Shown here: piece after piece, positions 30,630 through 62,251 of the stretch
Layout of the letters: every line of letters starts with the position of its first letter
How positions within the stretch are numbered: position 1 is the first letter of the stretch
Origin: Acidimicrobiia bacterium
GTDB lineage: Bacteria; Actinomycetota; Acidimicrobiia; IMCC26256; JAENVU01
NCBI GenBank assembly: GCA_036502405.1
Contig: DASXYP010000065.1
Span: 3,687-67,686, forward strand
Length of the DNA stretch: 64,000 nt
Direction of reading: 5' to 3'
The notes under the pieces: model-generated
Seen by the model: only the letters and a program-made list of their open reading frames with translations
What the model was told of the DNA's origin: nothing
Database searches by the model: none
Made by a program: the position numbers and the translations under genes

Positions 30630-32765
30630 ATGGAAGGCCCGTCCCGGCGCTGGCTGCGCTTCTTCGTGATCATCACCCTGGGCGGGATCGGGGTCGGCAT
30701 CTGCCTCGCGGCGCTCGTCCCCGGGGTCCAGAAGATCGCGGGCTCGAGCCAGTACTCGGGCAAGGTCGGCCCGCTGCTCAACCGGCAGTGCGCCATCTGC
30801 GGCGAACCGACGACGGTCTACGACACCGGCGGTCATTACCTGGACACGCTGGGACTGCGCGACCGGCGGCCGGTGGACCTGAGCGACGTGCCGAAGACCC
30901 TGATCAGCGCGGTGATCGCGACCGAGGACCGGACCTTCTACGACAACCCCGGAGTCGACGTGCAGTCGATGATCCGGGCGTTTCTCGAGAACGTCGACAA
31001 GGGTGGCGTCGAGCAGGGCGGCTCGACCATCACCCAGCAGCTGATCAAGAACCGGGTGCTGAAGCACCCCAAGCGCGACCTCAACCGCAAGATCAAGGAG
31101 GCGGCGCTCGCCATCCGGCTGAACGAGGAGTGGTCCAAGAACCACATCCTCCAGGAGTACCTCAACACGGTGTACTTCGGTCAGGGCTCCTACGGCGTGA
31201 AGGCGGCCGCGGCGCGCTACTTCGACAACACCCCGCTCGAGAAGATCGACCTCGCCCAGGCCGCACTGCTCGCCGGGCTCATCAAGAACCCGGAGGGTGA
31301 CAACCCGTTCGTCCATTCGGACCACGCGTACGTCCGCCGGGCGCAGGTGCTCGCGACGATGGTCCGCCAGCATCGGATCACCAAGGCGCAGGCTGCGCTC
31401 GCGAACCGTCAGGCGCTGCCGACGGTGGCGCCGCCCGCGGACTTCCGGCCGGACAACTACTACGTCGCGCAGGTGCGCGACCTCCTGACCGAGGACACGA
31501 AGTTCGGGCTCGGCGCGACGTTGAAGGAGCGCGAGGACAAGCTGAACCTCGGCGGGCTCCGGGTGTTCACCGCGTACGACCCGAAGGCCGAGCTGCTCGC
31601 GCAGGCGTCGATCGACTCGACGATCCCGATGACCCAGTTCAAGGTCGGGCTCGCGGCGATGGACCCGAGCAACGGCGACGTGAAGGCGATCGTGGCGGGC
31701 CCGCACCTCAGCTTCAACGACACGCCGTACAACTTCGCGACGATGCCGGCCCCGACCGGTCGCCAGCCCGGCTCCACCTTCAAGGCCGTGGTCCTGGCGA
31801 CCGCGCTCGCCAACGGCTTCTCGGTCAAGGACTCGGTCGACGGCACGTCGCCGTGCACCCTCAAGCTCACCGGCCAGAAGTACAACCCGCTGCTGCGCAC
31901 CCAGAACGCCGAGGGCGGGGGTGGGGTGATGAGCCTCCGCAGCGCGACCGAGAACTCGGTCAACTGTGCCTACTTCCGCCTCGGTGCCGCGGTCGGCCTC
32001 CAGAAGATCTCCGACATGGCGAAGGCGCTCGGGATCACCCACCGGATCAACCCGTCGAATTACTCACTCTCGATCGGCTCGTCCGACGGTGTGTCCCCGC
32101 TCGACATGGCCACCGCGTTCGCGACGTTCGCGGCCGACGGCGTACGCCACGACCCCGTGTTCATCACCAAGGTCGAGGACTCGAGCGGGCACGTGCTCTT
32201 CAAGGACGACTCCCAAGGGATTCGGGTGCTCGATCCTCAGGTGGCCCGGACCGTCACCGACGTCCTGCGCGGCGTGATCACGAAGGGCACCGGGACGCGC
32301 GCCAAGCTCATCGGACACGTCGCCGCCGGCAAGACGGGGACCACCGACCGCGAGCACGACGCGTGGTTCGTGGGCTACACGCCCCAGCTCGTCACCGCGG
32401 TGTGGATGGGCGACCCGACCCAGCTGACGCCGATGAGCCACGTCGGCAAGTTCAGCCCGGTGTTCGGCGGCACCTGGCCCGCGACGGTGTGGCAGAAGTT
32501 CATGACGCTCGCGCTCGCCGGCCAGACCGAGTATCCGTTCGCCGCGCCGGACCAGAAGCTGTGGCCCTTCGGGAAGTACGTCTCGGAGAACGGGCGGGGC
32601 AAGACGATCTCGTCGGGCTCCTCGCGCTTCGGCAGCTCGTCCACGACCCGGGGACGCCCGTTCGGCCGCCAGCCCGGCCCGCTCGCACCCTCGCCGACCG
32701 CGCCGACTTCGCCACCGGCGACGAGCCCGGAGACGACACCGACGCCGAGCACCCCGGGGCCGTGA
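30630..32765 (+). CDS. Class A penicillin-binding protein (transglycosylase/transpeptidase)
   Basis: EDRTFY, QGGSTITQQLIKN, RKIKE, YLNTVYFG; STFK, SVN, KTG. Confidence 0.94.
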   Translation: MEGPSRRWLRFFVIITLGGIGVGICLAALVPGVQKIAGSSQYSGKVGPLLNRQCAICGEPTTVYDTGGHYLDTLGLRDRRPVDLSDVPKTLISAVIATEDRTFYDNPGVDVQSMIRAFLENVDKGGVEQGGSTITQQLIKNRVLKHPKRDLNRKIKEAALAIRLNEEWSKNHILQEYLNTVYFGQGSYGVKAAAARYFDNTPLEKIDLAQAALLAGLIKNPEGDNPFVHSDHAYVRRAQVLATMVRQHRITKAQAALANRQALPTVAPPADFRPDNYYVAQVRDLLTEDTKFGLGATLKEREDKLNLGGLRVFTAYDPKAELLAQASIDSTIPMTQFKVGLAAMDPSNGDVKAIVAGPHLSFNDTPYNFATMPAPTGRQPGSTFKAVVLATALANGFSVKDSVDGTSPCTLKLTGQKYNPLLRTQNAEGGGGVMSLRSATENSVNCAYFRLGAAVGLQKISDMAKALGITHRINPSNYSLSIGSSDGVSPLDMATAFATFAADGVRHDPVFITKVEDSSGHVLFKDDSQGIRVLDPQVARTVTDVLRGVITKGTGTRAKLIGHVAAGKTGTTDREHDAWFVGYTPQLVTAVWMGDPTQLTPMSHVGKFSPVFGGTWPATVWQKFMTLALAGQTEYPFAAPDQKLWPFGKYVSENGRGKTISSGSSRFGSSSTTRGRPFGRQPGPLAPSPTAPTSPPATSPETTPTPSTPGP

Positions 32766-38024: not shown

Positions 38025-38373
38025 GGCGCGAGTTTCGTCGGCGCGCGATGAGACCCGAGTGAGAGCAACGACCCCGTGGCCAGGGGATGGAATCGAGGTG
38101 GGAGCGGGTGAACTCCGCGCGAAGGACGGCGAGGACGCCCTGCCGCACCGGGCAGGGTGGCGCAGCAGGGCGTCGACTCGCCGGTCGGGGACCGTAGTGC
38201 CACGCCATGTCCCGATGCGAGTGCAGAGCGCGAGACGTCAGGCACGTCGGGTCGTCGGTTCGACGCGGTGGGTGAGCTCGCCCACGGTGCGTTTCCGCCG
38301 CCGACGGGCCGGGTAGCCCGAGAGGGCGAGCAGGTTCGCCACCCCCGGCGAATCTTCAACGGGAAGTGCGCGA

Positions 38374-38610
38374 ATGACCGGCGTGAGCTCCGAGTTCCAG
38401 CAGGACGAGCGGTCGCAGCTCGACCTGCTGCGCACCAGTCTCGAGGACGCGCAGGACCAGTTGCGCCGGGCCCGGGCGCGCCTCGATCGCGCGCAGCGTC
38501 GCGTCCGGAACCTCGAGGTCGCGGTGCAGAGCTGGCAGGTGCTCGTCAGTCAGTACGAACAGGGCAACGCGCCCGGAAACGACCGTCGGCGGGCCGAGAT
38601 CCAGCTCTGA
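38374..38610 (+). CDS. Small coiled-coil hypothetical protein
   Basis: High GC3; heptad pattern LDLLRTSLEDAQDQLRRARARLDRA. Confidence 0.6.
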   Translation: MTGVSSEFQQDERSQLDLLRTSLEDAQDQLRRARARLDRAQRRVRNLEVAVQSWQVLVSQYEQGNAPGNDRRRAEIQL

Positions 38611-41430: not shown

Positions 41431-42225
41431 ATGACCTCCCGTCGGAGCCACCTCGTCGCGGCCGTGCTCGTTGTGCTCGCGGTCGCGTCCGGTTGCTCGA
41501 GCGGTGGTTCGGGGGGTACGTCCGGCGCGAGCAGGGCGCGCGGTCGCAGCCTCACCGGAACCCACTGGGTGCTGAGTGACCCCACGAACCTCGGGGTCCC
41601 TCTCAACGGGGTGGCGGTGACCGCAAAGCTCGATGCCGGCGTGATCAGCGGGAACAGCGGTTGCAACGGCTACCGCGCCCCGTACACGGTGGACGGGTCG
41701 AAGCTCACGATCAGTCGCCCCGTCGCCGGGACGCTGATGCAGTGCCCGCCCGCGCCGCAGGCGGTCGAGACCGCATACCGCGCTCGCCTGCCCCAGGTCG
41801 CGTCGTACGCGATCCGCGGTGCGCGCTTGACGTTCTCCGGGTCCGACGGTGCGGCACTGCTCGTCTACGACGCGATCGACGGATCTGCCGCGCTCGCAGG
41901 GGAGTGGAAGGCGACCAGCTACTCCACGGGCGAGGCGGTCCAGTCCGTGGCGAGCGCATCGACCCTGACCGCCAAGTTCGAGCACGGGCAGGTGTCCGGT
42001 GAGAGCGGCTGCAACAGCTTCGGCGGACCGTACGAGGTGCACGGCTCGAGCATCGATCTGGGTCCGCTCCGCTCCACGCTCAAGGCCTGCGCGGATCCGG
42101 CACTGCAGACCCAGGAGCAGCAGTTCCAGGAGGCCTTGCACCTCGCGTCGACCTATGAGGTCGCGAACGCGATCCTGCAGCTGTTCCGCGCCGACGGTGG
42201 GATCACCGCGACCTTCGTGAGGTGA
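41431..42225 (+). CDS. Lipoprotein with two META domains
   Basis: Lipobox ASGC; two SGCN and T(L)MQC/TLKAC motifs. Confidence 0.88.
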   Translation: MTSRRSHLVAAVLVVLAVASGCSSGGSGGTSGASRARGRSLTGTHWVLSDPTNLGVPLNGVAVTAKLDAGVISGNSGCNGYRAPYTVDGSKLTISRPVAGTLMQCPPAPQAVETAYRARLPQVASYAIRGARLTFSGSDGAALLVYDAIDGSAALAGEWKATSYSTGEAVQSVASASTLTAKFEHGQVSGESGCNSFGGPYEVHGSSIDLGPLRSTLKACADPALQTQEQQFQEALHLASTYEVANAILQLFRADGGITATFVR

Positions 42226-42992: not shown

Positions 42993-43610
42993 CTACGGGC
43001 CGTTGCGGACGCGGGTGACGCCTTCCACGTTGCATCCGACCGTGCCCCCCGGCACGGGCCGATCCGCCATCGCGACGAAGGCGGTCGGAGCGTTCGCCGG
43101 GACACCGTCGCTCGGTGTGGACGCTTGCTCGAGCTCGCGGCCGCCCCGCTGGAACCCGATCGTGACGACGTAGCTCGACACGGCGCCCGAGTGGTTCGTG
43201 ATCGCCCCGTCGGCCTCGGGTCGCCCGAGTGAGTTCACGAGGCACGAGGTGATGACGACGTCGCCGGTCGCCGAGCCGTGCGAGTCCGCGAGCGCGCCCC
43301 CGTCGAGCAGCACACCGACGATGCCGGCGCCGACGACGATGGCCAGCGCGCAGATGATCCAGGTGAGGCCGCCCACGCGAGGCTTCTCGACGAACCTGGC
43401 GGACACCCACGGACCGGCCGGCGGCGCGTGGAGGACGGCACCGGCCGCGACCGGTGTTGCTCTCGGTCGCGTCGCGGTGGACCGCTCGGATCCGGAGCCG
43501 TCGATGCCGACCCGACCCCGGTCGCTGACGTGCGCGGTCCAGCGGTTGCCGTCGTGGAAGCGGTGCTCATGACTGCCCCGAGGATCCGGATGCCAACCCG
43601 GCTCGACCAT
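42993..43610 (-). CDS. DUF2510 domain membrane protein
   Basis: PGWHPDPRG.HEHRFHDGNRWT, TM helix, Cys-containing external domain. Confidence 0.8.
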   Translation of the reverse strand: MVEPGWHPDPRGSHEHRFHDGNRWTAHVSDRGRVGIDGSGSERSTATRPRATPVAAGAVLHAPPAGPWVSARFVEKPRVGGLTWIICALAIVVGAGIVGVLLDGGALADSHGSATGDVVITSCLVNSLGRPEADGAITNHSGAVSSYVVTIGFQRGGRELEQASTPSDGVPANAPTAFVAMADRPVPGGTVGCNVEGVTRVRNGP

Positions 43611-43836
43611 CCCTGCCCTCCTGCCCGAACGCCGGGGAGGTCGGACTCCAAGGCAGGAGGGAGTCCGCCCTCGCCGCGGCGAGAACCAGCGTCGCGCCGC
43701 TCTTCCCGGTCCGCATCCGAGGAACCACGGATTCACAGATCGTGGGAGGAATCGCCACCGGGTCCTCGCGCCTGCACCGGAATGCCCGATCGCGATCCGT
43801 AATTCCACGGAACCTCGCGCCACTGCGCCGGTTCAA

Positions 43837-43862
43837 GGTTTGGCCGCGCGAACATCGGGTAC
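43837..43862 (+). promoter_or_regulatory. SigB/SigF-type (general stress) promoter
   Basis: GGTTT-N15-GGGTAC. Confidence 0.65.
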
Positions 43863-43869
43863 GTGCGCG

Positions 43870-44230
43870 AAACCTCGGATGTGACGCGTCGCCGGCTCTG
43901 GCCCCCCAGCCATGCCCACAAGGCATGCCGGCGCGCGTCGCATCCGAGGGCGCGGCGGACGCTCGGGGCTTCCCCCCAACGGAATCCTTCGGGCGCTCCG
44001 CCGCGTCCCGGTTCCGACGCAGCGCGCGATCCGGCACCGCGCGTGATCAGCGGGGCCGCCGCTTCGGAAAGACCGCGGCGAACGTGCGTGGTTCCACCCT
44101 TGTCGGGGACTCGGGTCGGCTCTTGAATGGAAGGGCGCGGCGGGGTGAGCCCCGAGCTTCCCCCCAGGTTGTCCGAGGGCACCCTCGCCGCGCCGAGGCC
44201 CGTCCCACCTTGGCGGGGACGGGCCTCGTG
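43870..44230 (+). ncRNA. Candidate sRNA(s) with three long hairpins carrying CCCCCCA loops
   Basis: Stems 43873-43949, 43948-44009 and 44134-44194; closing hairpin 44195-44227; no credible CDS. Confidence 0.55.
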
Positions 44231-44814
44231 ACCGTGCCCTCTCGGGGGTGAGGGGAGACGGATGCGCGATGGTACGGGCGCGCGCGCCGTCGGCGAGTGG
44301 CGCGCCTCGCAACGTTCATCCGCGTTCCACGCGACCGTTACCCCGGGGCGCGTGACCCGACCGCGGGTGTCGAACAGGCGCGCGACCCACGCGGGAAGGG
44401 TCTCGAGACGCGCCGCGACCCCGGGCCGGGCAGGGTGGCTCGGGGTCGCTGGCCTCGTGAACCTAGCGGTTCGAAGCCCGGGCCGCACCTATGGCCCGGC
44501 GACGGGAACCTGCCCGGACGGGGCGGTGTGAAGCGGTACGACGGCGGGTACTTCGCTCGTGGCGGCAGGGATGTCGCCACGAGCGGAGAGACGCGGGGCA
44601 ACCCATCGGTCGCCGCGGCTGCCGAGGGGCACCGTCGGGCGCCGGGGGTTGAACCAACACATGGACGTGGACCCACGCGTGAGCCGGGGGTGCGGGTGCC
44701 GAAGCTTCTTCCCCGGTGACGGTCCGCGCCCTCGGCGCGTGCCGCCTGGTTGCTCCTTTGCTCCGGGCATGAGAGCGTGCGCGAGGGGAACGGGCATCTA
44801 CAGAGAGTCGGAGC

Positions 44815-45120
44815 ATGGCTGCAGAATTGATCCTGGAGTTCGAAGGTGTCACCACGGACGAGTACTACGCCGTGAACAAGGAGCTGGGGATCGACCCGGA
44901 GAGCGGGGAGGGCAGCTGGCCCGACGGGATGGTCGCGCACTCGGCGGGACTCAACGAGGCCGGGCATCTGGTCGTCATCGAGGTGTGGGATACCCCCGCG
45001 CACCAGGCCAAGTTCATGGAGGGACGGCTGCGAGACGCGCTGGCCAAGGGAGGCGTCACCGACCCACCGTCGAGCGTGACCTGGATCGAGCTCGTCGCGC
45101 ACCATCACCTCGGGAGCTGA
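44815..45120 (+). CDS. Hypothetical protein, possible dimeric alpha/beta barrel
   Basis: GGAG RBS; WPDGMVAHSAG, VIEVWD, QAKFMEGRL. Confidence 0.8.
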   Translation: MAAELILEFEGVTTDEYYAVNKELGIDPESGEGSWPDGMVAHSAGLNEAGHLVVIEVWDTPAHQAKFMEGRLRDALAKGGVTDPPSSVTWIELVAHHHLGS

Positions 45121-45193
45121 CCGAACGGCCGATCGATCGCGAGCCGCGCACGTCAGCTCGATCGCTGACGCGGTCCGGAAGAAGGGGGAGCGG

Positions 45194-45706
45194 ATGCGGC
45201 GGTGGGTCGTTGTCATTGCTGTCGTACTCGGCGCGGTGGTCGTCGCGCCGGGGACGGCCGGAGCTGCGGTCCGGCACGTCGACGGGGCGATGTCGGGAGC
45301 CGGGCACTTCGACTCCCAGTCGGGGTGCGCCGGGATCATCGAGCAGACGGGTTCGGGTGCGTTCGCGGCGCGCGACCTCGGGGTCGGCACGTACACGTTC
45401 TCGGTGTGCATCACCCAGGGCCCGAGCGCGCTGTCCTTCGCTGGGACCGCTTCGTTCCGGACACACTCCGGCGCGCAGCTCCACGGCACCATCGACAACT
45501 CGGGACCACTGGGCCAGTACCCGACCTTCGTCCTGACGGTGACGGGCGGGACGCGGCGCTACCGGCACGCGACGGGGACGCTGACGCTCGGCCCCCTCGC
45601 CGAGAGCAACTCGACGAGCTGCGACCCGAGGTCGGGGGTCTGCTTCGACTGGACCGACCGCGGTCCGCTCACCGGAGCGCTCCGCCACGTGCGTCCCCGT
45701 CGATGA
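45194..45706 (+). CDS. Secreted hypothetical beta-rich protein
   Basis: Signal peptide ending AGA; VTGGTRRYRHATG motif. Confidence 0.75.
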   Translation: MRRWVVVIAVVLGAVVVAPGTAGAAVRHVDGAMSGAGHFDSQSGCAGIIEQTGSGAFAARDLGVGTYTFSVCITQGPSALSFAGTASFRTHSGAQLHGTIDNSGPLGQYPTFVLTVTGGTRRYRHATGTLTLGPLAESNSTSCDPRSGVCFDWTDRGPLTGALRHVRPRR

Positions 45707-45713
45707 CGCGACG

Positions 45714-45959
45714 GTGACCGAGGTCCGGGGCGGATCCCGGCTCGCAATCGGGAACTGGACGTGGTGGGTCTGGTGGATCGTGGGCGGACTCGTGCTCGTC
45801 CCAACCATGGACCTGCTCTTCAACGCGGGGGCCGCAGGCGCTGCCGCGCTTGGCTGGACAATTCTCGCCACGACGACTGTCAGGAGCTCGCTGGACAAGA
45901 TTCGAGACCCCGAAATAGCAGCCCGAGAAGCGCGTAGGAGGGAACGCAACCAGCTCTAG
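45714..45959 (+). CDS. Small hypothetical membrane protein
   Basis: Two hydrophobic segments. Confidence 0.5.
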   Translation: MTEVRGGSRLAIGNWTWWVWWIVGGLVLVPTMDLLFNAGAAGAAALGWTILATTTVRSSLDKIRDPEIAAREARRRERNQL

Positions 45960-46030
45960 CAGGCTGGCCCGGGAGCCAACGAGCACGCCAGCGCGACGAG
46001 CGCGACGACGCAGCAGCCAACGAGCGGGCT

Positions 46031-46390
46031 CTACACCTTGCGGCCGGGCCGGCTGATGTACCAGGCGCAGGTCTGAAGGACGGCCTGGATGAAGAAGCCC
46101 GAACCCCACTCGAACTCGCCGAGCAGCACGTAGATCCAGGAGACGGCCGCAGCCGCAGCGCCCGCACCGGTGTACTCCCCGTTCCGATACTGATACGCGG
46201 CCGCGAGGCTGAACCCGATGGACGGGATCGAGACGATCAACCAGAAGATTCCGACCGGGCTCCCGTCGGTCAAGCCCTTCGGGATGAAGAACAGGGCGGT
46301 GATGCACCCGGCGATCAGGCACAGGAGGCCCGACCGGCGACGGCGTCGACGTACCAGATCGTCGCGGGTCTCCGCCGCGCCCAGCCCCAT
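46031..46390 (-). CDS. Hypothetical 4-TM membrane protein
   Basis: TACGCT-6 nt-ATG; hydrophobic helices. Confidence 0.65.
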   Translation of the reverse strand: MGLGAAETRDDLVRRRRRRSGLLCLIAGCITALFFIPKGLTDGSPVGIFWLIVSIPSIGFSLAAAYQYRNGEYTGAGAAAAAVSWIYVLLGEFEWGSGFFIQAVLQTCAWYISRPGRKV

Positions 46391-46574
46391 GGGCGGAGCG
46401 TAGGCGGACGATCCCGTCGTGGGCCACGTCGCGCGACGCGGTGCGACGCGCCGCGACCCCGGGTGGCTCGCGGTCGCAGGCGGACTCGAGTGTGCACCCC
46501 GAGGGCGGTCTGAGAACGCGCGCACGCTGAACGGCGGCAAGGGTAGGGGTCGCGCGCGGACGCCGCCATGGGCC

Positions 46575-46632
46575 GTGGTCCTGGCGGTCGCGCTCGTGAT
46601 CGCCGCGCCCGCGTGTGACTCGTCGAGCTCGC
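46575..46632 (+). repeat. Imperfect ~60 bp direct repeat, copy 1 (copy 2 at 48541-48600)
   Basis: GTGGTCcTGGCGGTCGCGCTCGtGATCGcCGcGCCCGCGTGTGACT--CGTCGAGCTCGC. Confidence 0.85.
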
Positions 46633-46780
46633 ACATCGTTCTCGCCCTGACGCTGACTGTGGCGACACTCTCGAACTGGATCATTGAGCGGCCCATCAAT
46701 CGCTCGGCCCGGCGGGCGATGCGCTGAGGCACGTCGCGGGTCCGCGACATCTCGATCCCTGCAGACCAATATGCGGCGAC

Positions 46781-48412
46781 ATGGAGGCCCGGCCCACGCG
46801 CGCTTCGACGAGTCGGCCGTTCCCGACGACCGCCGTCCTCCTGGCTGCGGTCGTCGCGCTCGGTCTGGTGCTCCGGTTGGCCACGATCGTTGCCGGGAAG
46901 GGTGGACTGGGCGAGAGCGTGCATCCGGGCTACGACGAGTCGGTTTACGTCGGAGCGGCGTGGCTCGTCGGCAGGGGTGCCCTTCCCTACCGGGACTTCG
47001 TCTACGTGTTCCCTCCGGGGTTTCTCGTATTGCTGTGGCCGGTGACGAAGATCGCCTCGATCTTCGGCGGGCCTGCGCTCGCCGTCACCTTGGTGCGGCT
47101 CCTCGCGGCACTCGTCGGCGCGATCAACGTCTGGCTCGTCGGTCGGATCGGTCGCCGGTGGATGGGCGACGCCGGCAGCATTGTTGCCGCGCTCGTCTAT
47201 GCCACCGCGCCTCTCGTCGCGCAGACCGAGGCCTCGGCACTTCAGGAGCCGTTCGTCAACGTGTTCGTCCTGCTCGCGGTCGTCGTGTGGGCGGCCCGAC
47301 CTGACGCTGAACGCACGACCCGCCGGCTGATCGCCGCGGGGCTGCTCGTCGGCGCTGCGGTGTCCATCAAGCTCGTCGCCGGGATGTTCCTCGTCCCGCT
47401 GCTCATCGCGATCCCGTTCGCCCGCCCGGTTGCGGACCGTGTGCGCCTGGCCGTCGCCGCGAGCCTGCCCCTCGCGGTCACCGGTGCCGTGATCGCGCTG
47501 TTCGTCGGCTGGCACGCCATCTTCGAGCAGGCGTTCATGGCCCAGGTCCTGCGACCCCAAGACGGTGAAGGTCTGTCGCGCGTGGACTCCATGCTCCCGG
47601 TCCTGCGCGGTCAGCTGCAGCACACGGGCTTCCTCTCGAACCCGAGCGCGTGGATCGCAGTGTTGGTCTTCGTCACAGTGTGCGCCGGAGCGATCTGGAA
47701 GGGGGGACTCCCCGGCCGGCTCTGGGGGACGACGGGGCTCGTCGTCATGGGCGTGCTCATGGCGTCGCCTTCGTACTTCGCTCACTACGGGGTGCTCATC
47801 GCACCGACGGTCGCGCTCATCACCGGCTGGGTACTGACCCGCGCGTACCTCTGGCTCCAGGATCGACACCTCGTCGCGCCCGCCATCGTCTCGGCGGGCG
47901 CGATCCTCGTCGTCGCCGCGATCGGCTTCGCCCAGGCCGCGACTACGGTCGACGAGCTCCCGGTCGGCGTCACCCAACTCGGAGACCAGCTCAACACGAT
48001 CGTCCACGACCGCGGCCGACCCACCGCAGGCGCGGTCTCGAAGGGCATCCTCCATACGCCCGCCGACACATGTTTTGTCGCCGTGCGTCCGCAACCACTC
48101 CTCGACGCGAACCGCGTTCCTTCTGCAGACCGACACGGCCACGTGCTCCTCGACGTCTACGGCAGCGCGCTCGTCGCCGCGCGGCACGGACACCGGCAAC
48201 CGTTCGAGCTGCTCAGCGCCGCGTTCCCATCAATCCAACGCGAGATCCTCGAACAAAGCCGCGACTGCGAGTTCACCGTGTTCTCCCTGCGCCGCTGCAT
48301 CGCCGGCCGCAAGGACATCACGGCGGCAACCCAGAGGAAGCTGATCGCCGAGACCCGTCCATGGGCCCGCAACGGCTGCACCATGATGCGACGCCGAGCA
48401 ACCTCCAAGTGA
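46781..48412 (+). CDS. GT-C membrane glycosyltransferase (ArnT/PMT-like)
   Basis: YDESVY, PYRDF..FPPG, LQEPF, SIKL, YFAHY; multi-TM. Confidence 0.8.
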   Translation: MEARPTRASTSRPFPTTAVLLAAVVALGLVLRLATIVAGKGGLGESVHPGYDESVYVGAAWLVGRGALPYRDFVYVFPPGFLVLLWPVTKIASIFGGPALAVTLVRLLAALVGAINVWLVGRIGRRWMGDAGSIVAALVYATAPLVAQTEASALQEPFVNVFVLLAVVVWAARPDAERTTRRLIAAGLLVGAAVSIKLVAGMFLVPLLIAIPFARPVADRVRLAVAASLPLAVTGAVIALFVGWHAIFEQAFMAQVLRPQDGEGLSRVDSMLPVLRGQLQHTGFLSNPSAWIAVLVFVTVCAGAIWKGGLPGRLWGTTGLVVMGVLMASPSYFAHYGVLIAPTVALITGWVLTRAYLWLQDRHLVAPAIVSAGAILVVAAIGFAQAATTVDELPVGVTQLGDQLNTIVHDRGRPTAGAVSKGILHTPADTCFVAVRPQPLLDANRVPSADRHGHVLLDVYGSALVAARHGHRQPFELLSAAFPSIQREILEQSRDCEFTVFSLRRCIAGRKDITAATQRKLIAETRPWARNGCTMMRRRATSK

Positions 48413-48540
48413 TGCACCCCGTCGCGCTCGCGCCTGGAACCAGGCGCGTGCGTGAATGTCACCCTTCAGGATCGACGACATGGTGAGCGAGGAGTGTGGT
48501 CATCTACCGTGATGGTGTGGCAGGACGGACGTGGGGATTC

Positions 48541-48600
48541 GTGGTCTTGGCGGTCGCGCTCGCGATCGTCGTGCCCGCGTGTGACTCTCGTCGAGCTCGC
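48541..48600 (+). repeat. Imperfect ~60 bp direct repeat, copy 2
   Basis: Matches 46575-46632 with 4 substitutions and a 2-nt insertion. Confidence 0.85.
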
Positions 48601-48883
48601 GGTAGGTCCATGCTGGCCCGGGGTGCCCCGCACGATCCGCGCCGTGGAGGTTGCGTGCCCCGACTCCGACCGCCCCTGGACCAGCTCGACCAGGAGGGCG
48701 AGATGCGAAGCGCCCTGCGCCGGCTCCGGCGCCTGGGCTGCGAGCTGCCCTACGAACGCGACACCTCGGGTCTCGGCGCGCAGGTCGGACCGGCGAGTGT
48801 CGCGCATAGGCAGATCCTCGGCTGCGTGGTACTGGAGCGGTACTGGTCCGCCGGTGTTCTCCCAAAACTCTTCTGAAGATGGG

Positions 48884-49292
48884 GCGTAGTGGTGAGGTGG
48901 CCTGTACGCCGGATTCTGTGCCGGCACCTCGCGGTGCCGGTGGCGACCATCCATCTCGGCCGGCGGTTGCCCGACGGCTCCAGCGGCCTACCCGGAGGTG
49001 TGTGACGCGAACGCCACGCGGACGGGCCGTCCTCCTCCTGTCTGGCCTTGCTCCTGGTGGGGTTTACCGAGCCGCCCGGGTCACCCCGGGCGCTGGTGCG
49101 CTCTTACCGCACCGTTGCACCCTTGCCTGTGCGGACCGGTCGCCCGGTCCGCCATCGGCGGTCTGTTCTCTGTGGCACTGTCCTGCGGGTCGCCCCGACT
49201 GGGTGTTACCCAGCACCGTGCCCTGCGGAGTCCGGACGTTCCTCGGACGGGTCGAGCCCGTACGCGGTCGCCCGGCCACCTCACCACTACGC
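48884..49292 (-). ncRNA. rnpB: RNase P RNA (type A)
   Basis: Minus strand has GAGGAACGTCCGGACTCC, CAGTGCCACAGAGAACAGACCGCC, GGTAAACCCCACCAGGAGCAAG and ACAGAATCCGGCGTACAG; complementary ends. Confidence 0.97.
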
Positions 49293-61831: not shown

Positions 61832-62251
61832 CTACTCGCCCAGGAGCTGGACGACGACCTTCCGGGTCCGCGGTCGGTCGTCGAAGTCGACGCAGACGAT
61901 CTTCTGCCAGACTCCGAGGACCAGCTCGCCCCCCGACAGCGGCACCGTCACCGATGGCCCGATCAGCGCCGCACGCGCGTGGCTGTGTCCGTTGGTGTCC
62001 GCATTGCGTTCGTTGTGCTCCCAGCGACCGGCTTCGGGCGCGATCCGCTCCGCAACCGCGTTCAGATCGGCGTTGCAGCCCGGCTCGAACTCGATGGTCG
62101 TCATGCCACAGGTGGAGTGGGCGACGAAGACGGTGCAGATCCCGTCGGTCATCCCCGCGTTGTCGATCGCCTTCTGGGCCTGGGCGGTGAGGTCGACGAC
62201 CTCGCCGTTGCCCTGCGTGTCGAGTGACAGCTCCTCGTAGCGAGCCTGCAT
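61832..62251 (-). CDS. YjbQ/UPF0047 family protein
   Basis: HSTCG, NGHSH, LGVWQKI..DFD.RPR.R. Confidence 0.92.
   Translation of the reverse strand: MQARYEELSLDTQGNGEVVDLTAQAQKAIDNAGMTDGICTVFVAHSTCGMTTIEFEPGCNADLNAVAERIAPEAGRWEHNERNADTNGHSHARAALIGPSVTVPLSGGELVLGVWQKIVCVDFDDRPRTRKVVVQLLGE

Follow-up and report, generated by a model that had tools for sequence, protein, structure and literature searches.

C-rich small regulatory RNAs (sRNAs) of Firmicutes, such as RsaE/RoxS, LhrC1-5 of Listeria and the Rsa RNAs of S. aureus, use several C-rich seed loops to target G-rich Shine-Dalgarno (SD) regions. Some of them are under the control of SigB, and LhrC is a multi-copy RNA with three seed motifs. 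In Actinobacteria, the closest described systems are 6C and F6. The hairpin loops of 6C (RF01066; B11 in mycobacteria) carry conserved C-runs, and these C-rich loops are described as binding G-rich ribosome-binding sites (RBSs) without a chaperone (PMC6486639). According to the same source, C/G runs are depleted in the genome of M. smegmatis. F6 (RF01791) has a typical, putative SigF promoter (PMC8557902, PMC2764107). Its transcript of 102 nucleotides (nt) is processed to 58 nt (PMC8557902) and, as stated for most sRNAs of M. tuberculosis, shows C-rich unpaired stretches (PMC2764107). Here, we describe a locus at positions 43837-44228 in a stretch of 64,000 nt from the genome of an uncultured soil Acidimicrobiia bacterium; this whole stretch is referred to as the window. 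In this locus, a SigF/SigB-type promoter motif is followed by three hairpins with C-run loops and by a closing GC hairpin. Most probably, this locus is an enlarged member, with three modules, of a new sRNA family that is restricted to one genus. This putative family resembles 6C and F6 in kind and is unrelated to them in sequence. The features of the locus are as follows:

43837-43862, plus strand: SigF/SigB-type promoter (-35 element G-GTTT at 43837-43841, 15-nt spacer, -10 element GGGTA-C at 43857-43862)
43873-43949, plus strand: hairpin 1, -57.5 kcal/mol, 31 pairs; a long outer stem around two small hairpins
43948-44009, plus strand: hairpin 2, abutting hairpin 1; apex UUCC-CCCCAAC-GGAA with the loop at 43974-43980
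44010-44133, plus strand: spacer of 124 nt with weaker local structure
44134-44194, plus strand: hairpin 3 with the core CCGAGCTTCCCCCCAGGTTGTCCGAGGG; loop CCCCA at 44162-44166
44194-44228, plus strand: closing GC hairpin of 13 bp, -26.6 kcal/mol, abutting hairpin 3

With 6C, the locus shares adjacent hairpins whose loops carry C-runs (CCCCCA, CCCCAAC and CCCCA) and a host genome that is depleted of C/G runs. The two differ in size: the 6C model has 75 positions, whereas the locus comprises about 360 nt with three modules and stems of 20 or more bp. Furthermore, the locus possesses a SigF-type promoter, and its family has several copies in a single genome. Conservation of 6C extends over several actinobacterial genera, whereas the layout of the locus is enriched in one genus only. 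F6, which is itself stress-induced, is similar with respect to the SigF-type promoter upstream (here GTTT-N15-GGGTA at 43838-43861, as a motif) and the C-rich unpaired stretches; it differs from the locus in fold and in length. Compared to the Firmicutes sRNAs, whose loops contain UCCC/CCCC motifs, the locus exposes CCCCCA on long GC stems; those RNAs belong to another phylum and are unrelated in sequence.

The first-pass annotation had regarded the locus as a 6C/F6-like sRNA system. The general kind fits with respect to C-rich loops and a SigF-type promoter; homology to the Rfam families 6C and F6 was not found. At gathering thresholds, RNase P RNA and one tRNA were the only Rfam matches in the whole window, and at E<=10 the interval 43400-45000 yielded nothing but noise (mraW, 18.3 bits; Pxr, 17 bits; Leu leader, 15.8 bits; miRNAs). 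Neither RF01066 (cut-off 47 bits) nor RF01791 (cut-off 46 bits) matched this interval at E<=10, and the same holds for both models and the sibling loci L062, L063, L002 and L004. Genome-wide, RF01066 gave no match at E<=10 among the 150 of about 2670 candidates that were scored; because of this partial scoring and because the Corynebacterium control was matched below the cut-off, the sensitivity of that search is limited. The best genome-wide F6 match (19.1 bits) lies on contig C97 and is unrelated to the locus. The Pxr match (RF01812, Myxococcus) covers 44131-44235 with 17 bits at a gathering threshold of 80 and an E-value of 4.7. It was rejected as chance-level and arises because Pxr, too, combines a C-run loop with a GC hairpin behind it. 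The mraW motif match lies at 44683-44736 (+), with 18.3 bits at a cut-off of 50, and is probably noise; it is a hairpin with a CUUCCCC loop, again C-rich, about 80 nt before an open reading frame (ORF) at 44815.

Architecture, folding and rarity of the locus

The host assembly comprises 3.9 Mb with a GC content of 71.6%, and the window belongs to its contig C65. Near-identical DNA is present in soil metagenome runs (10 public runs listed, all of them soil DNA metagenomes). The stretch 43837-43862 is an exact match to the SigF/SigB-type consensus with the commonest spacing. For comparison, the SigF consensus of M. smegmatis is given as GTTT-N(14-19)-GGGTA with N15 and N16 as the usual spacings (PMC4694148). 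A regular-expression search located the previously annotated GGTTT-N15-GGGTAC promoter at this position, which is one of 13 genome-wide sites, on both strands, that match GGTTT-N14-17-GGGTAY. Transcription would start at about 43869-43872.

Hairpin 1 starts 10 nt past the promoter. Its inverted repeat of 16 nt (43873-43888/43934-43949, 94%) belongs to a stem that encloses the two inner hairpins GGC-CCCCCA-GCC (loop 43903-43908) and CATGCC-CACAA-GGCATG. Inverted repeats of 12 nt (92% each) characterize hairpin 2 (43948-43959/43997-44008) and hairpin 3 (44134-44145/44183-44194), and the 13-nt repeat of the closing hairpin is perfect (44194-44206/44216-44228, 100%). The three long stems and the perfect closing hairpin of the first-pass annotation were recovered at these positions, the closing stem measuring 13 bp. 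Hairpins 2 and 3 have in common AGGGCGCGGCGG (100%) and a segment of 27 nt with GCTTCCCCCCA at its end (74%), which agrees with the duplication that had been suggested for them. As a consequence of this duplication, there is 91% complementarity between the 3' arm of hairpin 2 (43998-44008) and the 5' arm of hairpin 3 (44133-44143). Pairing of these two arms allows an alternative long-range structure that encloses the spacer.

The motif CCCCCCA occurs on the plus strand at 43902, 43972 and 44160 and had been assigned to the apices of all three hairpins. This is confirmed by the predicted fold, in which the first one or two C of each run are paired and CCCCCA, CCCCAAC and CCCCA are left as loops. 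In the predicted ensemble, four to six bases per hairpin are unpaired, and the probability of being unpaired is about 0.8-1.0 for the loop bases. The plus strand as a whole (370 nt) folds with -224.1 kcal/mol, as compared to -192.7 +/- 5.9 kcal/mol for 100 dinucleotide shuffles (z -5.3). The native sequence is about 31 kcal/mol better, and none of the 100 shuffles folds as well.

C-runs are strongly avoided in this genome: CCCCCC was observed 1041 times, whereas 16402 occurrences are expected from base composition. On both strands, CCCCCCA occurs 217 times, as compared to 2331 occurrences predicted by base composition and 574 by a first-order Markov model. For three copies of CCCCCCA on the same strand within 260 nt, about 0.006 loci are expected genome-wide and two were observed. 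The second one is located on contig C21 as the antisense of a G-rich gene start. The features of the locus exceed chance. Three other close CCCCCCA pairs of the genome were considered as canonical 6C copies and rejected, as none of them matches 6C at E<=10. One of these pairs lies in the leader of the L34 (rpmH) gene (C141, about 31150-31290, minus strand), after a TAGAAT box resembling a -10 element. This leader contains two copies of CCGACCCCCCAC at a distance of 25 nt, both in small hairpins, and it has no match at E<=10 to Rfam including 6C.

Stress sigma factor and genes behind the promoter motif

The genome encodes a sigma factor of the SigB/F/G subfamily (C21:46306-46971; 278.7 bits at an NCBIfam cut-off of 234.35). 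The motif GTTT-N14-17-GGGTAN occurs at 42 sites, and a coding-like ORF is located within 220 nt downstream in 34 of them. When 14 of the ORFs of this genome that lie behind the motif were compared to Pfam, seven matched a family (DJ-1/PfpI, two Zn-ADH, SDR, PEBP, DoxX and a CsbD-like protein, the latter with 38 bits just under the 40-bit cut-off) and seven matched none. In relatives, too, the motif stands before CsbD-like and other small proteins. As the motif precedes genes of the general-stress type in a regulon-like manner, it is reasonable to interpret 43837-43862 as a stress-sigma promoter.

Eleven copies of GTTT-N14-17-GGGTAN are located within 69 kb of contig C49 (68823-137723). The genes behind them code for dehydrogenases and for small proteins that belong to no known family; this region is possibly a general-stress gene island. 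A second SigF-type motif is found in the window itself at 38291-38373 (+), where GTTT-N17-GGGTAG is followed by a hairpin with an ACCCCC loop. The adjacent ORF 38374-38610 codes for 78 amino acids (aa) of coiled-coil-like character and has a weak match to DUF7310 (20.5 bits, cut-off 40). The C-loop hairpin at this site is part of the mRNA leader of the ORF and not an sRNA.

The layout recurs within one genus

The layout of the locus is found at four loci of its own genome, namely in the window and on the contigs C36 (position 3023), C66 (19621) and C101 (27921). It consists of GTTT-N14-17-GGG(T/C)A, a gap of 7-12 nt, a hairpin whose loop reads CCCCCA and, usually, a GC-rich terminator-like hairpin. 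The pattern GTTTN{14,17}GGGYAN{8,45}CCCCCCA has 10 matches in five of the 11 genomes of the genus, and the backwards control pattern has none. Among the other 23 genomes of the taxonomic family, the same pattern has three matches as compared to nine for the control, which is no enrichment. The matches in the genus are the four loci mentioned, one locus each in the genomes G005 and G008, and two loci each in G010 and G001.

In all 10 matches, the C-loop hairpin begins 7-12 nt past the -10 box (10 nt in the window), and an apical CCCCCA or CCCCA in a G/C-closed stem is present in all siblings and in all three hairpins of the window. In eight of the 10 matches, a GC hairpin of the type GAGGCCCCG...CGGGGCCTCGAC (GAGGCC..GGCCTCG type) follows within the 170 nt that were inspected. 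The two exceptions are the C101 copy, which has no closing hairpin, and the window, where the closing hairpin lies farther downstream. This hairpin type recurs across the genus and presumably represents its usual terminator form. When folded, the matches from the genus form compact units of about 100 nt, sometimes with a second small hairpin before the GC hairpin. Such a second small hairpin after the C-loop is common to C66 and hairpin 1; in the window, both lie inside the long outer stem. Hairpin 1 also has its loop motif GCCCCCCAGC in common with the siblings C36 and C66.

The C66 locus belongs to an orthologue group from four genomes. GTTT and GGGTA are invariant in all four orthologues, the spacer is variable, and the terminator hairpin is nearly identical. 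The stem of the loop hairpin in G010 and G001 differs from that in G000 and G008, and the CCCCCA loop is the same. This pattern of conservation bears the marks of selected sRNA genes. The C101 copy carries a hairpin resembling hairpin 3 and lacks a terminator-like one. By visual inspection, a small ORF of the opposite strand extends into this copy, which may work differently or be decaying. At the level of sequence, the cohesion of the family is limited to the promoter, the loop and, in most members, the terminator-like hairpin.

Genomic setting and history of the locus

The following further features of the window are referred to below:

41431-42225: META-domain gene, upstream neighbour of the variable stretch
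42993-43613, minus strand: DUF2510 gene (Pfam), flanking the non-coding stretch
44815-45120, plus strand: ORF of 101 aa without a Pfam family, at the other flank
48889-49283, minus strand: RNase P RNA gene (Rfam)
61832-62251, minus strand: UPF0047 (YjbQ-family) gene (Pfam, E 2.6e-34)

The 1.2 kb around the locus (about 43580-44780) had been described as free of a credible coding sequence. In agreement with this, no frame of the stretch has the GC bias at third codon positions that is typical of genes here, and its three long ORFs have no Pfam family. A search for a conserved reading frame across the region was negative as well: in the 34 genomes of the taxonomic family, a minus-strand ORF of 251 aa is matched merely by two short pieces of 38 and 30 aa, both in G008.

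Hairpin 3 is the sole module with homologues outside the locus (C101:27826-27886, minus strand, and G005:C3:1811388-1811461, plus strand). Together with hairpin 2, a diverged duplicate, they form a subtype in which a core of 28 nt (CCGAGCTTCCCCCCAGGTTGTCCGAGGG) is conserved and the outer stems differ yet still pair; four of the 19 consensus pairs are kept by double changes across the four sequences. A covariance model (R1) that was built from these four hairpins, hairpin 2 included, scores them with 86, 84, 77 and 67 bits (67 for hairpin 2). In the 34 genomes it recovered these training hairpins alone, the next best match having 29.6 bits. When R1 was applied to 11 loci with filters off, the result was the same, and siblings of the C36/C66 type and of the G010a type were not recognised. 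The exact core of hairpin 3 is present in two of the 264 genomes of the order, and a metagenome scan for it gave no match. Scanning metagenomes for the promoter together with GCTTCCCCCCA gave 35 matches, all of which were taken as chance: 34 are located on contigs with 30-67% GC, the family layout was seen in none, and the one on a contig with 73% GC has no hairpin.

In both C101 and G005, the hairpin follows directly after GTTT-N16-GGGCA. As in the window, the G005 copy has the META-domain gene on one side and the RNase P RNA gene on the other; it stands directly after GGTTT-N16-GGGCAG and ends in a terminator-like hairpin. Given the same gene position, the promoter and the terminator-like hairpin, this copy is the positional orthologue of the window locus in a simple one-hairpin form. 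In the window, a degenerate promoter-like box, GGTTC-N18-GGGTCG at 44090-44118, stands 15 nt before hairpin 3. As hairpins of this subtype directly follow such a promoter motif in C101 and G005, the box is plausibly a relic of the original promoter of the hairpin 3 unit. The array looks like a product of fusion and duplication, in which a promoter and hairpins 1 and 2 were set before an older hairpin 3 unit.

The stretch from the META gene to the RNase P RNA varies among relatives. In G005, about 1.45 kb of unrelated sequence are found in place of the segments between these two genes. In G008, the sequence that matches window 44409-44502 is located about 37 nt from the 3' end of the RNase P RNA. 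The adjoining 44503-48877 (4.4 kb) of the window has no counterpart in G008; it contains a gene for a PMT_2/GT87-like membrane glycosyltransferase (46781-48412) and small ORFs without a Pfam family. Conversely, G008 has about 161 nt between 44348 and 44409 that are absent from the window. They open a small ORF, read by eye, which resembles a hydrophobic membrane protein and of which the window appears to keep a remnant. A hairpin with a G-run loop, CCCTC-TCGGGGGT-GAGGG at 44243-44260, is conserved in the window and in G008.

Candidate target sites

A G-run before the ATG of the yjbQ-like gene had been noted in the first-pass annotation, and CTGGGGGGTC is indeed located directly upstream of the UPF0047 ATG. 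The loop-complementary sequence before this gene is CTGGGGGG, and the complementarity extends over just 8 nt. For the loop motif GCCCCCCAG, which hairpin 1 shares with C36 and C66, the complementary 9-mer CTGGGGGGC has 29 genomic sites. Three sites correspond to the sRNA loops read in antisense, and at least six others stand, judged by sequence context, directly before apparent starts. Genes whose start is preceded by CTGGGGGGC at a distance of 2-5 nt include, among others, two for GT2-like glycosyltransferases and one that is transaldolase-like. Both GT2-like genes have GGCACTGGGGGGC just before the ATG, and they are the best-looking candidate targets of the GCCCCCCAG loops. At C21:25509-25746 (+), four TGGGGGG motifs are clustered at the start of a GT2-like gene, and on the antisense strand this cluster is the second CCCCCCA triple mentioned above; the second gene is located on C2 at about 50316 (+).

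Proposed function and alternative explanations

The proposed mechanism is that of a non-coding RNA gene of about 360 nt at 43837-44228 (+). Under stress, a SigB/F/G-type sigma factor would direct RNA polymerase to GTTT-N15-GGGTA. The RNA would start just before hairpin 1 and end at the GC hairpin 44194-44228, which may act as an (I-shaped) terminator; some transcripts may end earlier at a long stem. It is predicted to fold into three rigid hairpins, each of which presents four to six unpaired C (+A) at its tip. These loops would be the seeds and bind to G-runs, for example (C)UGGGGG(G)(C), which some mRNAs use as SD-like sites. Pairing would alter translation or stability, as for mycobacterial 6C, without an Hfq-type chaperone. 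The array has probably grown by duplication, which would account for hairpins 2 and 3 as copies and for the decayed promoter-like box before hairpin 3. That the locus is a stress-induced regulatory RNA gene with three C-rich seed loops, and that it works by this full mechanism, appears somewhat better than evenly likely.

A number of observations weigh against this interpretation. The family was seen in just five of the 11 genomes of the genus, several of which are 56-73% complete. For hairpins 1 and 2 and for this copy of the promoter, no homologue exists in the 33 other genomes of the taxonomic family, where the best non-self match has 24 nt (E 1.1e-3); searching relatives for the two hairpins at the DNA and protein levels gave nothing meaningful, and the order and the metagenome collection contain no homologue of the two hairpins and the promoter copy either. 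The closing hairpin has no U-tract, and scanning for canonical terminators was negative. As RNA polymerase could already stop at the long stems of hairpins 1 and 2, a single RNA of 360 nt is not assured. With respect to the targets, a crude start-site scan found TGGGGGG near coding-like starts at a fraction of 0.111 of its sites, as compared to 0.082-0.089 (control motifs GGGGGT, GGAGG and GGGAGG), which is no clear enrichment. Since G-runs resemble SD sites anyway and a clear excess is missing, the complementary sites are candidates, not evidence. Finally, neither the promoter nor hairpins 1 and 2 are present in G008, whose sequence is closest at the locus; the 5' half of hairpin 3 is missing as well, and the segment 42229-44181 of the window, which contains most of the locus, has no counterpart there. 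G008 retains the 3' half of hairpin 3, the closing hairpin with an identical stem and two changes in the loop, and downstream sequence with 89-91% identity. The array is therefore either dispensable or of recent origin, and the locus may be young and still unshaped by selection.

According to the main rival explanation, the locus is evolutionary debris, i.e. a recent non-functional by-product of duplication and rearrangement of sRNA-gene pieces in a variable region, whether transcribed or not. It would account for the missing segment and the truncated hairpin 3 in G008, for hairpins 1 and 2 being unique to this genome, for the decayed promoter-like box before hairpin 3, for the further 4.4 kb (44503-48877) that, compared to G008, lie between the locus and the RNase P RNA, and for the apparent remnant, directly downstream, of a small gene of which G008 has the intact form. 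However, the promoter matches the consensus perfectly and shows no decay, the three stems are nearly perfect, a C-run is kept in each of the three loops, and the layout matches that of conserved siblings. In addition, contigs of related soil strains have two variant sites in the 394-nt locus as compared to 15 in 827 flanking nt, and both variants are found in spacers (that of the promoter and that between hairpins), none in stems or loops. This is a weak hint of constraint on the locus; the contrast is not significant (Fisher p = 0.07) and contig coverage is uneven. Altogether, we consider debris unlikely. An RNA that acts by binding protein or as a decoy, with C-rich loops that are bound by a poly-C-binding or chaperone-like protein or that soak up G-rich RNA, is improbable. 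Three identical loop motifs on rigid stems do resemble multivalent decoy RNAs, the G-run target sites are not clearly enriched, and an alternative chaperone that recognises C-rich stretches was raised by Arnvig and Young (PMC2764107). Yet no candidate protein was identified, siblings with a single loop exist, and pairing of 6C is described as chaperone-independent (PMC6486639).

Quite improbable is a cis-acting leader, in which the 101-aa ORF at 44815-45120 would be expressed from a long SigF-dependent mRNA that begins with the hairpins, and these would cause attenuation or mask the RBS. The promoter points to this ORF, no other promoter was found in between, and in another search of the genus, three of 10 matches to a pattern of promoter plus C-run are mRNA leaders, before CsbD-like and other small proteins; 38291-38373 of the window is a further example. 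However, the ATG lies about 590 nt beyond the closing hairpin, part of this intervening sequence abuts the RNase P RNA in G008 where no such ORF is present, and the ORF itself has no Pfam family. Moreover, the copies in C36, C66, G010, G001 and G005 end in terminator-like hairpins with no ORF attached. The strand, finally, deserves consideration, because the minus strand folds nearly as stably (-222.8 kcal/mol, z -5.1) and the DUF2510 gene adjoins on that strand. The element might function as a minus-strand RNA with loops rich in G, such as a long leader of the DUF2510 gene, or act at the DNA level as REP-like (repetitive extragenic palindromic) palindromes. The first-pass annotation had stated that G-U pairs favour the plus strand. 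This holds for hairpin 2 (-44.9 kcal/mol on the plus and -38.3 on the minus strand) and for the spacer (-48.4 and -44.8), which are more stable on the plus strand by 6.6 and 3.6 kcal/mol. It does not hold overall, as hairpin 1 (-57.5 and -57.2), hairpin 3 (-41.9 and -41.1) and the closing hairpin (-26.6 and -28.2) illustrate. The consensus promoter lies on the plus strand, and it is a C-run, not a G-run, that follows the promoter in all paralogues. A REP-like element is further opposed by the very low copy number, with the exact core in two of 264 genomes. Both a minus-strand RNA and DNA-level palindromes are accordingly regarded as highly improbable.

Returning to the regulatory RNA gene, a more far-reaching proposal is offered tentatively and is rather doubtful as a whole. 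The family may constitute a lineage-specific post-transcriptional arm of a SigF-type stress response, in which at least four sibling sRNAs would silence, by means of their GCCCCCCAG loops, mRNAs with CUGGGGGGC G-run SD sites. The locus described here would then be a "polycistronic" three-seed sRNA of about 360 nt, which could serve either as one multivalent hub or, much like F6 with its trimming from 102 to 58 nt, as the precursor of individual hairpin sRNAs released by cleavage.

Implications for Acidimicrobiia

Acidimicrobiia are abundant in soil and almost wholly uncultured, and a limited literature search found no description of regulatory RNAs in this class. The finding opens no new mechanism and will be plausible and useful rather than surprising to a specialist. 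The locus offers a compact and testable set: its promoter, the three loops and a small number of leaders with G-runs. Should the family prove real, the logic of a C-rich loop directed against a G-rich RBS, which is found in Mycobacterium, Streptomyces and Firmicutes, would have arisen again from unrelated sequence and would have been wired to the same type of stress sigma factor.

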